A DNA stretch of 63,319 bases, filler included, from assembly GCA_964501035.1 (NCBI GenBank). It is 3 parts of 3 records of this genome, joined end to end, with 100 filler letters (N's around TTAATTAATTAA, not from the genome) between each part and the next. Parts side by side here need not be neighbours in the genome. Positions count along the whole stretch, not along the records: positions 43,726 to 63,319 come from CAZCRK010000026.1; 2 more parts are not named here. One strand, 5' to 3'. The position numbers and the translations under genes are program-made. Of the stretch, positions 57,347 to 61,796 are shown in pieces. Under the pieces are notes generated by a model. It was given only the letters and a program-made list of their open reading frames with translations, made no database searches and was not told where the DNA came from. The first letter of the stretch is position 1. Every line of letters starts with the position of its first letter.

Positions 57347-58304
57347 ATGGTTTTCCATATTTCTTGCTCTGTTCTGCATTAGTTGCTCTGATAGTGATTT
57401 GCTAATTACTAATGACCAAAATGATATCCAAAGCAGCATCGTAGGATTCACAAGTAATAACTCTGGAATAGTTTTAACTTCTGTTGATTTACTTTGGAAT
57501 TCTTTTGAAAATACATCAATTACACTTTCAATAACAGATTCAATAATTGATGTAGGTTCTATTAATCAATATTCTTTTGAGGGATTGAGTCCAGGATGGT
57601 TTGACAAAGTTGTATTAACTATTGAATTAGATTCTGAAACTTTAACAGATAGTATTACAGTATTTACAAGGCCTTTGGAACCTGCAAAAAATTTCAATGT
57701 GTCACCATTTTTTACTTCAAATGGTTACAAACAATATGAACTGAGTTGGGATAATAGCGAAGATGTAAACAAAAATATCCTCTATAAAGTTTCAATTTTT
57801 GAAGAGGATGACCCAGACATAAGTTTTGAAAATGGTGAATTGAATTCTCAATGGGACTCATTGACTGTATTTGATAAACTTTACACATCTTTTATTGACA
57901 CTTCTTTACATTTTTCTGATTCAGCATATTATTACATTATTAAAACGGTTGAAAAATATGGTGCTTTTAGATATAGTAAAATTCCAAATATTGAATCTCC
58001 AATTCAAAACTCTACTTTTAGTTTTACAAATTTAACCGATGACTTGTATCACAGAATTGAATTAGAATGGGACCCTTATTTGGATGAAGATTTTTATGAA
58101 ATGGAGTTATGGAGAAGTTCTAACTATAGTTCCCCAGTAGAAAATGGAAAACAACTTGGAGTTTTCTCAGATCCATCTATTGATTTTTATTACGATGTTA
58201 ATAATTTAGTTGGTGGGGTTGATTATTATTATCAAATGAAAATTACCAATATTTTTGGATATTCTACCATTAGTGAAATAGTAAGTGGACGCTCTCACCC
58301 ATGA
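57336..58304 (+). CDS. Hypothetical lipoprotein with FN3-like beta domains
   Basis: GTG start, FCISC lipobox-like; ELSW/ELEW and YYY motifs. Confidence 0.6.
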   Translation: MIHKWFSIFLALFCISCSDSDLLITNDQNDIQSSIVGFTSNNSGIVLTSVDLLWNSFENTSITLSITDSIIDVGSINQYSFEGLSPGWFDKVVLTIELDSETLTDSITVFTRPLEPAKNFNVSPFFTSNGYKQYELSWDNSEDVNKNILYKVSIFEEDDPDISFENGELNSQWDSLTVFDKLYTSFIDTSLHFSDSAYYYIIKTVEKYGAFRYSKIPNIESPIQNSTFSFTNLTDDLYHRIELEWDPYLDEDFYEMELWRSSNYSSPVENGKQLGVFSDPSIDFYYDVNNLVGGVDYYYQMKITNIFGYSTISEIVSGRSHP

Positions 58305-59038
58305 TGAAATATTTTATATATCCCTTATCGTTTCTACTGTTTTCTTGTACTGATTTATTGTTACATGATTCAACATATCATTCTCTGTCATTTAATGGCG
58401 GTGCATGGATAGAATTTGAGGGGTTAGATTTACAAAATAATTTCACAATAGAATTTTGGACCACTGGAGGTCAAGTAAATTCATCTGAATCCCCAGCACT
58501 TATTTCTATTGGAAATCAAGATTCAATTCAATTTGCATTGTATCGCCATCCAAATATTAAATCACAAGTAATGATTGAGTTAAACAATAATCTAACAAAT
58601 ACAACTATTAATAGTTTAGATACTGTAAATACAGAAACATTTAATTTTATTGCAATTTCTAAATATGATACTTTTATGAACATCCATATTAATGGGCTTG
58701 ATTTTCAAACAGAAATTGACTTTTGGGACGTAGGTTCAACCCTGTATATTGGAGCAGTTCCCTACTTAACCATGTCAAATTTTTGGATTGGGATAATCGA
58801 TGAAATTCGTTTTTGGGATACTAACTTAGATAGTGAGATATTGGAATTTCATGCTGAAAATCCGAACAAACTATTTCAAAATGAAAACAATGATATAGAA
58901 GACAATATAATTGCACATTGGAGGTTAGAATATACAGAACCAAGTTCTATTGTTTCTGATTCAAAAAATAATTTCGATGGGGTGATTAAAACACTTCCAG
59001 GATATTCTGTAGAATTATCATCAAAATTTGCACAATGA
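58301..59038 (+). CDS. LamG/concanavalin A-like lipoprotein
   Basis: LLFSC lipobox; SLSFNGG, FTIEFW, GIIDEIRFW, IAHW. Confidence 0.75.
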   Translation: MMKYFIYPLSFLLFSCTDLLLHDSTYHSLSFNGGAWIEFEGLDLQNNFTIEFWTTGGQVNSSESPALISIGNQDSIQFALYRHPNIKSQVMIELNNNLTNTTINSLDTVNTETFNFIAISKYDTFMNIHINGLDFQTEIDFWDVGSTLYIGAVPYLTMSNFWIGIIDEIRFWDTNLDSEILEFHAENPNKLFQNENNDIEDNIIAHWRLEYTEPSSIVSDSKNNFDGVIKTLPGYSVELSSKFAQ

Positions 59039-59082
59039 TTTTGGTTTGAATAGGTTCAATCCTGTAAATTTTTGCCCTGTTT

Positions 59083-59156
59083 GGGCTCTTAGCTCAGTTG
59101 GTTAGAGCAGTGGACTCATAATCCATTGGTCCGGGGTTCAAGTCCCTGAGGGCCCA
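59083..59156 (+). tRNA. tRNA with CAT anticodon, most likely tRNA-Ile2 (lysidine); CCA not encoded
   Basis: GGGCTCTTAGCTCAGTTGGTTAGAGCAGTGGACTCATAATCCATTGGTCCGGGGTTCAAGTCCCTGAGGGCCCA; cloverleaf, ileX-like. Confidence 0.93.
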
Positions 59157-59165
59157 CAAAAAAAA

Positions 59166-59204
59166 GGAAGCGACCTGTTGAAGTAAAATTCAGCAGGTCA
59201 TTCC
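59166..59204 (+). terminator. Hairpin immediately downstream of the tRNA (terminator/processing-like)
   Basis: GACCTGTTGAA-gtaaaa-TTCAGCAGGTC flanked by GGAA/TTCC. Confidence 0.5.
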
Positions 59205-59216
59205 ATAACTAATCAA

Positions 59217-59465
59217 ATGTCCTATTTCGTCTATATACTAAAATCTAAAGTAGCAGATTGGCATTATGTGGGGATGTCATCTAATCCACAATCCAGATTA
59301 AAATCGCACAATTCAGGTCAAGTCAAATCTACTAAATCCAGAAGACCATTTAAGATTATACTCATTGAGAAATTCCCAAATAGAAGTTAAGCCAGATTAC
59401 GAGAAAAATATTATAAAACTGGCTTTGGCAAAAAAGTTTGGATGAAGAAACTTAACTCAAAATAG
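59217..59465 (+). pseudogene. Small stand-alone GIY-YIG nuclease with one in-frame stop (not in ORF track)
   Basis: MSYFVYILKS...HYVGMS...RLKSHNSG..STKSRRP...E...RS*ARLREKYYKTGFG; TAA at 59388-59390. Confidence 0.88.
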
Positions 59466-59475
59466 CTAGGGGTTC

Positions 59476-59510
59476 CCAGCCCGCTCCCGACCAGCGGGAG
59501 GGCTGGCGGG
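59476..59510. repeat. 35-nt GC-rich nested palindrome inserted in the duplicated T-loop
   Basis: CCAGCC-cg-CTCCCG-accag-CGGGAG-GGCTGG-cggg. Confidence 0.8.
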
Positions 59511-59530
59511 AAGTCCCTGAGGGCCCACAT

Positions 59531-59559
59531 TAAAACCCTTCGTTTATCGAAGGGTTTTA
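59531..59559. terminator. Bidirectional intrinsic terminator
   Basis: TAAAACCCTTCG-tttat-CGAAGGGTTTTA between the convergent tRNA locus and hypF. Confidence 0.85.
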
Positions 59560-59570
59560 TTTAAAGAATT

Positions 59571-61796
59571 CTATTGTTGATGTTTTAGAGATGCTAGATA
59601 TGCTTGTCCCAAAGAAATCCCTCCATCATTTGGAGTTGATATTCTGTTAAATATTACATTAAATCCTGCAGATTTTAAGGCTGAAACAGAACGCTCAAAC
59701 AACAATCTATTTTGAAATACTCCCCCACTCAATGCAACGTGATTCAAATCAGATTTGTTTGCAATTTCAACGATTGATTTCACCAATCCATTATGAAATT
59801 TTGCTGAAACGATTTGATTGCTAATATTATTTTTTTTATCCTGAATAATTTGCATAATCAAATCATCTGTTTCTAAAACATTATTTTTCCAATTTAACAT
59901 ATAAAATCCTGTTTCACTTTGATCCACAATATATTGTAACTGCATTGCTGATTGACCTTCAAAAGTATTTATCTGACTAAGGCCAATCAATGATGCAATG
60001 CCGTCGAATAACCGCCCCATACTTGATGTTATTGGACTATTAATTTGGTGTTTCACCATATTTTGAATAAGATCAATCTCTTGAGAGGACCAATCCGAAT
60101 CAAATTGAAAATCTAGTTTCATGTTGGAAAGCAAACCAATTGCACTTCTTCTAGGTTCTTTAGAAGCAAAGTCTCCTCCAGGTAATGGAAATTGTTGCAA
60201 ATGACCCCATCTTTCAAATGTATCATTTTCGCAAATTAAAAATTCACCTCCCCAAATAGTATTATCTGAGCCAATTCCTGTACCATCCCAGGAAATACCG
60301 AGAGTAGGTTCAGTTATTTTATGCTCAGCCATAACTGACCCAATATGCGCATGATGATGCTGAACTTTTACTATTGGTAAATCCAAAGACATTGCAAATT
60401 TAGTTGATAAATAATCTGGGTGAAGGTCACAAGCAACAATTTCAGGATGTATATCATATAATTTTGGCAAATCTTCTACTATCTTTAAAAATGCTTGATA
60501 CGCCTCTGAATTAGATAAATCCCCGATATGTTGACTCATAACTATTTTGTCTGAAATTGAAATTGAAATTGTATTTTTCAGATGTGCACCAACACTAAGA
60601 ATAGCAGGTGATTTATGGTTTTTTTGAATTGAATAAGGTGCATAACCACGCGCAATTCTCAGAAATTGATTCCCATATTTTGTACTCTGAACTACAGAAT
60701 CATCAACCTGACGTGAAATAGAACGATTATGGTGCAGAAAAGCGTCTGCAATTTGATTTAATTTATGATTAGCATTTTTATTCGTAATGGAAATGGGCTC
60801 ATCATGATAATTCCCGGAAGTACATATCAATATTTGTAAAGGTTTGTTTACATACATTGGAGAAAATAATAAATGATGCAAAGGAGTATAAGGAAGCATA
60901 ACTCCAATATGAGTATTATTTTGGGCTATTAGCTTTGATAGATTTATGGTTGATTTATCTCGTTTTTTCAATAAAACAATGGGTGCCGAATACGAAGTGA
61001 GTGTTTCTATTTCCTGTTCTGATATTTCACAAATTTTCCTAACGGCTTCAATAGAATCAACCATGATCGCAAAGGGTTTTTCTTCTCTATGTTTTCTTTC
61101 ACGTAAAGTTTGAACAACTTTGTCAGAAGTCGCATCACACAATAACTGATACCCACCTACTCCTTTTAATGCAATTATTTTTCCGGATAACAAATCTTTT
61201 TGTACTTCTTTTATTGAAGAACCTTCGATTTTGGGTCCACATTTTGAGCACGCATTGGGTTGAGCGTGAAAACGCCTATCTGAGGGATCATCATACTCAG
61301 ATTGACACTTATTACACATGTTAAAAACATGCATTTCTGTATTTTTTCTATCATATGGTATCTCGTTTATAATTGAAAAACGAGGACCACAATTTGTGCA
61401 ATTTGTAAAAGGATATGCAAACCGTCTATCGTTTGGATTCAATATATCATTAAGGCAATCAGGACATGTTGCTAAATCCGGAAGAACTGTTACGGTTTTA
61501 CTCCCTTTCCCAACACTTTTTACAATTGTAAACCCCTTTTCATTTTGGTTTAAAGATATTTGTTTTTTAGAAATATTATCAATTCTAGAAACAATTGGAG
61601 CATCAATTTGTATTTTCTTAAGAAATTGTTCTAGAACAACTTTAGTTTGCTGCGCTTCAATAAATACACCCTGTGATGTATTACTTACATTTCCTGTAAT
61701 CCCAAGAGAGTTTGATAAATTATAAATGAAAGGTCTAAAACCAACTCCTTGTACAGCACCAGTAATATGAATATGAATACGAAGTTTATCAGACAT
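59571..61796 (-). CDS. hypF: Carbamoyltransferase HypF
   Basis: GAVQGVGFRPF acylphosphatase domain, CxxC zinc fingers, RRFHAQP, QHHHAH, DGTG, SSMGRLFD, NDGGISLGQ. Confidence 0.96.
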   Translation of the reverse strand: MSDKLRIHIHITGAVQGVGFRPFIYNLSNSLGITGNVSNTSQGVFIEAQQTKVVLEQFLKKIQIDAPIVSRIDNISKKQISLNQNEKGFTIVKSVGKGSKTVTVLPDLATCPDCLNDILNPNDRRFAYPFTNCTNCGPRFSIINEIPYDRKNTEMHVFNMCNKCQSEYDDPSDRRFHAQPNACSKCGPKIEGSSIKEVQKDLLSGKIIALKGVGGYQLLCDATSDKVVQTLRERKHREEKPFAIMVDSIEAVRKICEISEQEIETLTSYSAPIVLLKKRDKSTINLSKLIAQNNTHIGVMLPYTPLHHLLFSPMYVNKPLQILICTSGNYHDEPISITNKNANHKLNQIADAFLHHNRSISRQVDDSVVQSTKYGNQFLRIARGYAPYSIQKNHKSPAILSVGAHLKNTISISISDKIVMSQHIGDLSNSEAYQAFLKIVEDLPKLYDIHPEIVACDLHPDYLSTKFAMSLDLPIVKVQHHHAHIGSVMAEHKITEPTLGISWDGTGIGSDNTIWGGEFLICENDTFERWGHLQQFPLPGGDFASKEPRRSAIGLLSNMKLDFQFDSDWSSQEIDLIQNMVKHQINSPITSSMGRLFDGIASLIGLSQINTFEGQSAMQLQYIVDQSETGFYMLNWKNNVLETDDLIMQIIQDKKNNISNQIVSAKFHNGLVKSIVEIANKSDLNHVALSGGVFQNRLLFERSVSALKSAGFNVIFNRISTPNDGGISLGQAYLASLKHQQ

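Follow-up and report, generated by a model that had tools for sequence, protein, structure and literature searches.

What kind of DNA sits between a bacterial tRNA gene and its own terminator, carries the gene of a small nuclease and is bounded by two copies of the tRNA 3' end? The locus that raises this question lies in a window of 63,319 nt (the whole stretch of DNA that was analysed, made of joined contigs), on contig CAZCRK010000026.1 of assembly GCA_964501035.1. This assembly (1.87 Mb, 167 contigs, 33.8% G+C) is metagenome-derived and represents a marine bacterium; the closest homologues of its GIY-YIG protein are from Marinimicrobia/Neomarinimicrobiota. A first-pass annotation had described a tRNA gene, a hairpin, an 82-codon GIY-YIG gene, a 7+19-nt copy of the T-arm and a terminator, all of which are present, with small refinements of the coordinates. 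Our preferred reading, to which we assign a probability of about 70%, is that the insert represents one copy of a predicted minimal selfish, homing-type cassette that lives on tRNA and tmRNA genes. The features of the locus, in window positions, are as follows.

59083-59157, + strand: intact tRNA gene with anticodon CAT (CAU), probably tRNA-Ile2 (ARAGORN; Rfam tRNA, 70.8 bits)
59140-59158, + strand: first copy of repeat B, 19 nt, comprising the 3' half of the T-loop, the T-stem and the acceptor 3' strand plus 2 nt (repeat search)
59166-59206, + strand: hairpin Ha, in the interval from tRNA to gene, lacking a T-run behind it (inverted repeat and fold)
59217-59465, + strand: stand-alone GIY-YIG nuclease gene, 82 codons, with stop codon TAG at 59463-59465 (reading frame and Pfam PF01541)
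59469-59475, + strand: A', GGGGTTC, a copy of the 5' strand of the T-stem and the first T-loop bases (sequence reading)
59476-59510, + strand: hairpin Hb, GC-rich, 35 nt, splitting the spare T-loop right after GGTTC (sequence and conservation)
59511-59529, + strand: second copy of repeat B, contiguous with the terminator as at empty sites (repeat search)
59531-59559, + strand: native tRNA terminator, now the end of the cassette (perfect 12-bp inverted repeat, 59531-59542/59548-59559)

The tRNA(CAU) gene at 59083-59157 is the host gene of the cassette and likely the source of its transcription and of its left homology. Its best matches in Escherichia coli are annotated tRNA-Ile genes (82.7% identity over 75 nt). 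Because G1 and C72 can pair, as read from the sequence, it is no initiator tRNA, and the earlier label of tRNA-Ile2 is a reasonable one. The exact 19-nt repeat AAGTCCCTGAGGGCCCACA occurs at 59140-59158 and 59511-59529, with a spacing of 371, and the heptamer GGGGTTC, which within the tRNA occupies 59133-59139, recurs as A' 3 nt past the TAG of the nuclease gene. The 7+19 nt of the second T-arm copy are thus identical to the tRNA, as previously noted, but it had been overlooked that the 35 nt interrupting its T-loop form a conserved hairpin, Hb. Hb has a G+C content of 29/35, against 33.8% for the genome. The arms of Ha (59172-59182/59189-59199) are 11 nt long and 91% complementary, the hairpin is preceded by seven A's, and when folded as DNA it has a free energy of -10.7 kcal/mol (z -5.9). 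As assessed by a search of the whole genome, Ha and Hb are each present in a single copy.

Apart from the GIY-YIG gene, the list of open reading frames for 59158-59530 contains no frame of at least 30 aa except a 39-aa antisense frame, which agrees with the earlier statement that no integrase lies between the repeats. Rfam, run over the locus at a permissive threshold, matched the tRNA only. Neither sequence reading nor the terminator scan identified a terminator between the tRNA and the GIY-YIG gene; since the native terminator lies behind the gene, it is probably read from the tRNA promoter. The hairpin at 59531-59559 is absent from the output of the consensus terminator scan, and we call it a terminator on the basis of its perfect inverted repeat and of its conservation behind the tRNA in relatives.

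The limits of the insert were defined by comparison with sites that lack it. In same-family genomes the terminator stands directly behind tRNA(CAU), with no cassette. Positions 59511-59558 of the window, which comprise the second repeat and the terminator, align with the contiguous tRNA end and terminator of two genomes (G003 and G018) at 94% over 49 nt, and with those of five further genomes at 82-87%. A genome of the same genus (G001) aligns with 57927-59160 of the window at 72%, beyond which the two diverge and G001 has a terminator of its own, without insert. The empty sites that the first-pass annotation had suggested seeking in relatives thus exist, and they are evidently viable. When the window is compared with its two closest cassette-bearing relatives (L002 and L003), homology starts at the tRNA and ends at the second repeat. 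As delimited by these alignments, the cassette unit is 371 bp long and is inserted between the tRNA and its own terminator, and we read the second copy of repeat B (59511-59529) as the displaced native 3' end of the tRNA. The intergenic stretch upstream of tRNA(CAU) is kept in G001, and this comparison places it outside the element. It contains a T-loop-like 21-mer, which we considered as an older cassette piece and rejected, as it is kept in that cassette-free genome.

Twenty public sequencing runs match all or part of the stretch, and contigs of four of them were aligned to the locus, including three DNA runs (X1, X2 and X3) and an RNA library (X13). A 2,075-nt contig from X1 and X2, which may be one data set filed twice, spans 59129-59750 with 2 differences, and a 372-nt contig from X3 spans 59129-59501. 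Contigs of other metagenome runs therefore bridge both repeats and the whole insert, which makes the duplication real in independent data. That it is an artefact of assembly, as might be feared from a metagenome assembly in 167 contigs and a stretch made of joined contigs, has next to no probability, given this bridging and the recurrence of the layout in many assemblies. No joint of 59158 to 59530, the signature of an empty allele, occurs in the aligned metagenome contigs, which drop rare variants and so cannot show absence. One contig from X3 has a joint from 59132 to 59469, with a side of 21 nt, and probably derives from a copy in another organism, in which A' is longer. X13 yielded one 208-nt contig, about 97% identical over 59140-59336 and preceded by letters resembling the 3' arm of a hairpin. 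We rejected it as evidence of expression, because it derives from a relative and may be DNA carry-over.

The same contigs bear on the integrity of the nuclease gene. In GCA_964501035.1, codon 58 (59388-59390) is an in-frame TAA, and since the catalytic Glu (E63) lies past it, the assembled copy would be dead. The frame noted earlier is confirmed, but the stop is not shared by the population, a point overlooked before: position 59388 is A, and codon 58 hence AAA (Lys), in 3/3 DNA runs aligned (X1, X2 and X3). The TAA is therefore particular to this assembly or strain, and the gene is, to judge from these contigs, intact in the population. In relatives, codon 58 encodes Thr or Ser.

The encoded protein matches Pfam PF01541 with 60.4 bits (cut-off 22.6; E 2.1e-16). 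This is the sole Pfam match above cut-off and it spans residues 3-72, making this a single-domain protein of less than 150 aa. Among 11 relatives there is no variation at Y6, G19, R27, H31 or E63 and almost none at Y17, and all six residues are present in the window's frame. NCBIfam and PHROGs contain no specific family for the protein, the PHROG matches being weak (E 1e-4), and a search of a phage collection gave just weak matches, of at most 42% identity. Copies from other families share 73-76% identity with the window's protein. For HypF, identity is 64% to a same-genus genome without the cassette and 57% to a genome with it (G026). Some copies of the nuclease gene have internal stops, and decayed remnants also occur.

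Next to which genes do the homologues lie? In the window's own order, a homologue is present in 10/41 genomes, at 22 places, and a tRNA or tmRNA gene is found directly upstream on the same strand at 19 of these, while the other three are at contig ends. In a cross-phylum set of 80 loci, obtained with a single-protein query and scored for a tRNA or tmRNA gene within 400 nt, such a gene is present at 47 loci and on the same strand at 46 of them. It lies upstream at 25, downstream at 19, overlaps at two and is upstream on the opposite strand at one. We also surveyed 251 genomes of the window's phylum that are at least 80% complete, with a homologue threshold of E ≤ 1e-15. A homologue is present in 64 of these genomes, belonging to 37 of 99 genera, and a same-strand tRNA lies within 400 nt at 25 of 27 further loci, the remaining two being 69 and 24 nt from a contig end. 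These homologue sets overlap, because they were drawn from one collection of species representatives. As a background, 1.3% of the window's own genome lies within 400 nt of its 27 tRNA/tmRNA genes; the predicted enrichment of homologues beside such genes is thus borne out in all three sets. In the cross-phylum set, for instance, a relative in Marinifilum breve lies beside tRNA-Met. Among the targets are Met/Ile2(CAT), Leu, Asn, Asp, Ser, Val, Pro, Gly, Lys, Cys, Ala, Gln, Glu and tmRNA. At the threshold of E ≤ 1e-15, the other same-family genomes contain no homologue (0/12), and by these counts the distribution of the cassette is patchy.

A tree of 79 of the proteins has two branches, one of 51 proteins, 43 of which are tRNA-adjacent, and one of 28, of which 25 are without tRNA. 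The latter account for 25 of the 33 cross-phylum loci (33/80) that lack a tRNA. The 28-protein branch contains a clade of 26, mostly from Campylobacterota, with a UPF0213-like motif; in six members of this clade that were inspected, we found neither hairpins nor a tRNA. Of the eight proteins without tRNA in the 51-protein branch, four are encoded at most about 300 nt from a contig end. The proteins in the tree cluster by tRNA species or target and by layout.

Direct repeats of a tRNA 3' end that begin in the T-loop are typical integrase att sites, and the cassette resembles tyrosine-integrase islands in being foreign DNA bracketed by such a repeat. It could accordingly be the deletion remnant of a larger island at tRNA(CAU), and an integrase gene does occur beside a copy of this tRNA in one of 27 same-family loci (L026). 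That integrase sits 5' of the tRNA, though, and at the window locus no integrase fragment is left between the repeats, the gene abuts both of them, and distant genomes have the same compact layout. In none of the relatives did we see the same GIY-YIG gene as part of a longer island with these repeats at its ends. With no integrase, a length of 371 bp and a downstream repeat split by a hairpin, the cassette differs from these islands, and we regard a remnant as very improbable. It also differs from IS200/IS605 and REP/RAYT elements, which are defined by an HUH (Y1) transposase and many hairpin copies, whereas the cassette has just its GIY-YIG protein and single-copy Ha and Hb.

We then return to the preferred reading, that of a tRNA-borne homing-type cassette, for which the parts surrounding the gene are informative. 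At 34 of 46 same-strand loci, at least 8 nt of the adjacent tRNA are repeated beyond the gene, and both the tandem copies and the other tRNA targets that had been anticipated were found. In the window's clade (the window, L002, L003, L056, L057 and L135), the T-arm copy is always split by Hb right after GGTTC. A sister clade has a mirror layout, in which a related hairpin splits a 5' tRNA piece after the D-loop GGTTA; the gene comes next, then a repeated leader and finally the intact tRNA. The hairpin always stands behind GGTT(C/A), in the T-loop or D-loop of the spare tRNA piece. This recurrence in relatives indicates that the split T-arm copy is more than chance. Ha is conserved in L002 and L003, and A' is 10-12 nt long in relatives. 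As to the origin of A', either carried along by the element or copied from the tRNA at the site, L056 and L057 point opposite ways. Tandem full units are present at tmRNA and tRNA-Leu (L006 and L011), and gene-less units composed of spacer, GGTTC, Hb and 3' end are found behind tRNA genes, singly and in tandem (L058 and L062).

An alignment of eight Hb hairpins revealed two alternative outer helices, each with compensatory changes (A-T to T-A at one pair, C-G to T-A and G-C to A-T at others, with C-G to T-A also in L135). The two helices are mutually exclusive and both have such changes among just eight sequences, so that either may represent the fold of Hb. The 3' repeat next to the conserved Hb is decayed, with 3/18 mismatches in L002, 2/18 in L056 and more in L057. 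Since Hb is kept where the adjoining repeat has decayed, Hb rather than the repeat is under constraint. With its conservation, its compensatory changes and its fixed place behind GGTT(C/A), this functional-looking hairpin is part of the element.

Could the second T-arm and hairpin act mainly as RNA, a tRNA-like 3' structure serving to direct processing or to stabilise a nuclease mRNA excised from the tRNA transcript, with the duplication as a by-product? The tRNA, the gene and the spare T-arm are on one strand in 46 of 47 tRNA-adjacent loci, the interval from tRNA to gene has no terminator, and in the predicted fold Hb extends the spare T-stem. We nevertheless find an RNA role improbable. The acceptor 5' strand is missing, so that a tRNA-like minihelix cannot form; in older copies it is the repeat beside the hairpin, and not the hairpin, that has decayed; Rfam finds the tRNA alone; and in the mirror layout hairpins of the same type are upstream of the gene. 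SsnA, a small GIY-YIG nuclease discussed below, is reported to bind no RNA (PMC11893778).

The cassette thus contains a GIY-YIG gene for a catalytic domain only, two hairpins and a partial second T-arm, and leaves the host tRNA intact. Genes for many tRNA species and for tmRNA bear this design across many phyla, with tandem and gene-less copies among them. In our best reading, its closest published kin are SegB of phages, the mORFs of fungi and the nuclease-hairpin pairs of the Ssn family. The phage protein SegB, at about 220 aa, includes a DNA-binding part and cuts double-stranded DNA, and Seg-type free-standing homing endonucleases generally combine a GIY-YIG domain with a DNA-binding domain in about 200 aa or more. 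The recognition site of SegB contains the T-psi-C motif (PMC2330249); within tRNA genes it cuts RAWTSGAAC, which is the T-loop on the other strand, and it drives recombination-dependent tandem amplification of a segB-plus-tRNA unit, an association with tRNA genes shown for phage genomes (PMC13096335). The SegB of phages T4 and T6 resembles the cassette in being a free-standing GIY-YIG gene beside tRNA genes with a target that includes a conserved T-loop motif. Tandem nuclease-plus-tRNA units also have a counterpart, as relatives of the cassette occur in tandem with a breakpoint in the T-loop right after GGTTC, and gene-less alleles at the cassette's site exist in same-family genomes. Unlike segB, the cassette gene has 82 codons for a catalytic domain only, is chromosomal and bears weak likeness to phage proteins; it is also accompanied by a hairpin and a disabled spare tRNA piece, neither of which is mentioned for SegB in the passages cited here (PMC2330249 and PMC13096335).

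In fungal mitochondria, mORFs come with a substitute for the end of the host gene, whose native end they displace (Allomyces atp6; Glomus atp6, atp9, cox2 and nad3; PMC3630166). As in the cassette, an endonuclease gene at the end of a host gene comes with a replacement end, so that the host gene stays whole and its native end is displaced downstream. The mORFs differ in that their hosts are organelle protein genes, they are mostly LAGLIDADG (one is GIY-YIG), they are not known to have hairpins, and they are much larger. The Ssn nucleases (cd10448) are GIY-YIG proteins of about 90 aa that bind a hairpin in ssDNA and cut a few nt upstream, the 5' flank being critical (Chenal et al. 2025, PMC11893778). 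They share with the cassette a small stand-alone GIY-YIG protein flanked by hairpins of 20-50 nt in a fixed orientation, and the mutated SsnA residues Y6, Y17 and E64 correspond to the conserved Y6, Y17 and E63 of the cassette protein. The short 5' flank beside the hairpin, which matters for cutting by Ssn, has its place taken in the cassette by GGTT(C/A). One difference lies in copy number, the cassette hairpin being single-copy whereas SRM copies number in the hundreds. The published degenerate SRM pattern has no match in the whole genome, Hb included, and matches at one of 80 homologue loci, on the opposite strand; Hb is therefore no SRM as defined.

These parallels also allow for a host-serving module, i.e. 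a domesticated single-strand nuclease of the Ssn type which the cell retains, together with its hairpin, at tRNA genes, for example for trimming incoming DNA or for amplifying or repairing tRNA genes. SsnA and its hairpins modulate transformation in Neisseria, where the authors themselves raise domestication (PMC11893778), phage T6 gains from SegB-driven tRNA amplification (PMC13096335), and the catalytic residues of the cassette protein are conserved across relatives. We consider this unlikely, albeit the most serious of the alternatives, in view of the patchy spread (64/251 phylum genomes and none of 12 others in the family), of a hairpin present once in the genome with no network of repeats, of the copies with internal stops and the decayed remnants, and of the viable empty sites. 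The minimal selfish tRNA-targeting element that the first-pass annotation had put forward as a candidate is supported by the empty sites, the tRNA association and the patchy spread.

How might such a cassette move? In brief, the GIY-YIG gene would be transcribed, probably from the tRNA promoter, and the nuclease would break DNA at or beside the conserved tRNA loop motif GGTT(C/A). The break would be repaired by homologous recombination from a cassette-bearing copy, with the conserved tRNA body providing the left arm and the displaced 3' end of the tRNA, a mere 19 nt, the right one. The cassette would thereby be copied in while a working tRNA is rebuilt, by the logic of the fungal mORFs and with a parallel in SegB. 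Hb may serve as a docking site for the nuclease on ssDNA, as in Ssn, or as a plug interrupting the spare copy's target; we lean slightly towards a putative docking site, because GGTT(C/A) holds the place of the Ssn 5' flank beside the hairpin. As the intact tRNA keeps the presumed T-loop target, either self-cutting is tolerated or the real target differs. Further points against homing are the right homology arm of just 19 nt, the stop before the catalytic Glu in the assembled copy, the misfit of Hb to the SRM pattern and the 33/80 cross-phylum loci without a tRNA.

A bolder version, which we offer as a tentative proposal, is that these cassettes of about 0.4 kb may be the smallest autonomous homing elements of bacteria. 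A nuclease of 80 residues without DNA-binding domain would find its site by docking on its cognate hairpin, which the displaced strand of a tRNA gene under heavy transcription would extrude, with GGTT(C/A), universally conserved in tRNA loops, as the cleavage flank. Promoter, terminator, target and homology arms would all come from the tRNA gene, so that one design could colonise any tRNA or tmRNA gene across phyla. A full-text literature search, with most subscription journals outside its reach, retrieved the Ssn report but nothing that describes small GIY-YIG cassettes at tRNA genes of bacteria. If our reading is correct, a class of very small self-sufficient mobile DNA resides at tRNA and tmRNA genes in many phyla and is overlooked by standard annotation, which lists the gene as a hypothetical GIY-YIG protein and passes over both the hairpin and the tRNA piece; here even the open reading frame was missed. 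It would also join the hairpin-guided single-strand nucleases of the Ssn type and SegB-driven tRNA amplification to one natural role, account for partial tRNA duplications and hairpin-split pseudo-tRNAs in genomes, and offer compact sequence- and structure-specific nucleases together with a natural knock-in design.

The word tRNA does not occur in the main text of PMC11893778, and in 12 of its supplementary files it occurs just within gene descriptions. Proteins are assigned to the Ssn family by a top CDD hit to cd10448 or by a blastp match to N. meningitidis SsnA at E < 1e-10 with 75% cover. In Supplementary Data 4 of that report, a Marinifilum breve assembly is flagged as having a cd10448 homologue by psiblast, but not by tblastn to SsnA, and assemblies of other Lacibacter and Draconibacterium species are flagged by both tests; the gene is unspecified in each case. 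Three relatives of the cassette (L094, L090 and L091) belong to these genera, and of the three just L094 is from a flagged species.

Two tRNA-associated layouts occur in relatives of the window organism: the 3' cassette, in which the gene lies between an intact tRNA and a spare T-arm copy split by the GC-rich hairpin Hb, and a mirror layout, in which a 5' tRNA piece is split after GGTTA of the D-loop by a related, H2-type hairpin. At one homologue locus, L003, a gene-less 5' tRNA piece (L003:1276-1328), cut after GGTTA by an H2-type hairpin, lies 5' of the intact tRNA, and the 3' cassette is present alongside it; one tRNA can therefore be flanked by both layouts. Loci L058 and L062 likewise carry both around a single tRNA. 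The loop of Hb at L003:1760-1828 contains a nested extra insert (33 nt by alignment) and that at L056:1444-1512 a similar one, indicating that hairpin-in-hairpin insertions occur.

In the seawater runs that contain the window organism, loose contig ends at window positions 59469-59529 mark other Hb-bearing junctions, which comprise a gene-less unit resembling L058 and the end of another GIY-YIG gene. Contig depth at these junctions is ∼250, versus ∼7.6 for the window organism; relatives that are more abundant than it therefore commonly carry cassettes of this kind. Within the GIY-YIG ORF itself, two positions differ between the window and contigs from three other metagenome runs. At 59388, T in the window is A in these contigs, which changes a stop to Lys; at 59370, A is G, which changes Lys52 to Glu, the residue also found in L002.

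Across phyla, 47 of the 80 homologue loci have a tRNA or tmRNA within 400 nt, and this count is a lower bound because ARAGORN, which reported no tRNA at L098:1000-1200, missed a tRNA-Asp 3' portion located there 5' of the GIY-YIG gene, with a spare copy 3' of the ORF. At L010, in the same-family genome G003, the site behind the counterpart of the window's tRNA(CAU) is otherwise empty, but past its terminator, ∼190-270 nt after the tRNA, part of the 3' end of a GIY-YIG gene persists in decayed form (27 aa, 59% identity, E 4e-5). This remnant may be the trace of an earlier cassette, since lost, in the family of the window organism.

Besides the cassette gene, the window organism's own genome (G000) contains two more GIY-YIG domain matches:

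G000:C26:362-592, GIY-YIG domain match in a frame of 211 aa
G000:C5:28506-28706, GIY-YIG domain match in a frame of 107 aa

G051 has two copies of the window's tRNA, and a phage-integrase family frame (L026:1587-2624; PF00589, E 1.2e-19) lies on the opposite strand 8 nt from the 5' end of one of them.

A T-loop-like 21-mer, TAGGTTCAAYCCTGTAWATT, is found just 5' of the window's tRNA (59051-59071), with a second copy at 58733-58753 within the upstream Laminin_G_3 gene. The tRNA-proximal copy is also kept in the cassette-free, same-genus genome G001, and it may belong to a promoter of the TTTG / TAnnTTTG type.
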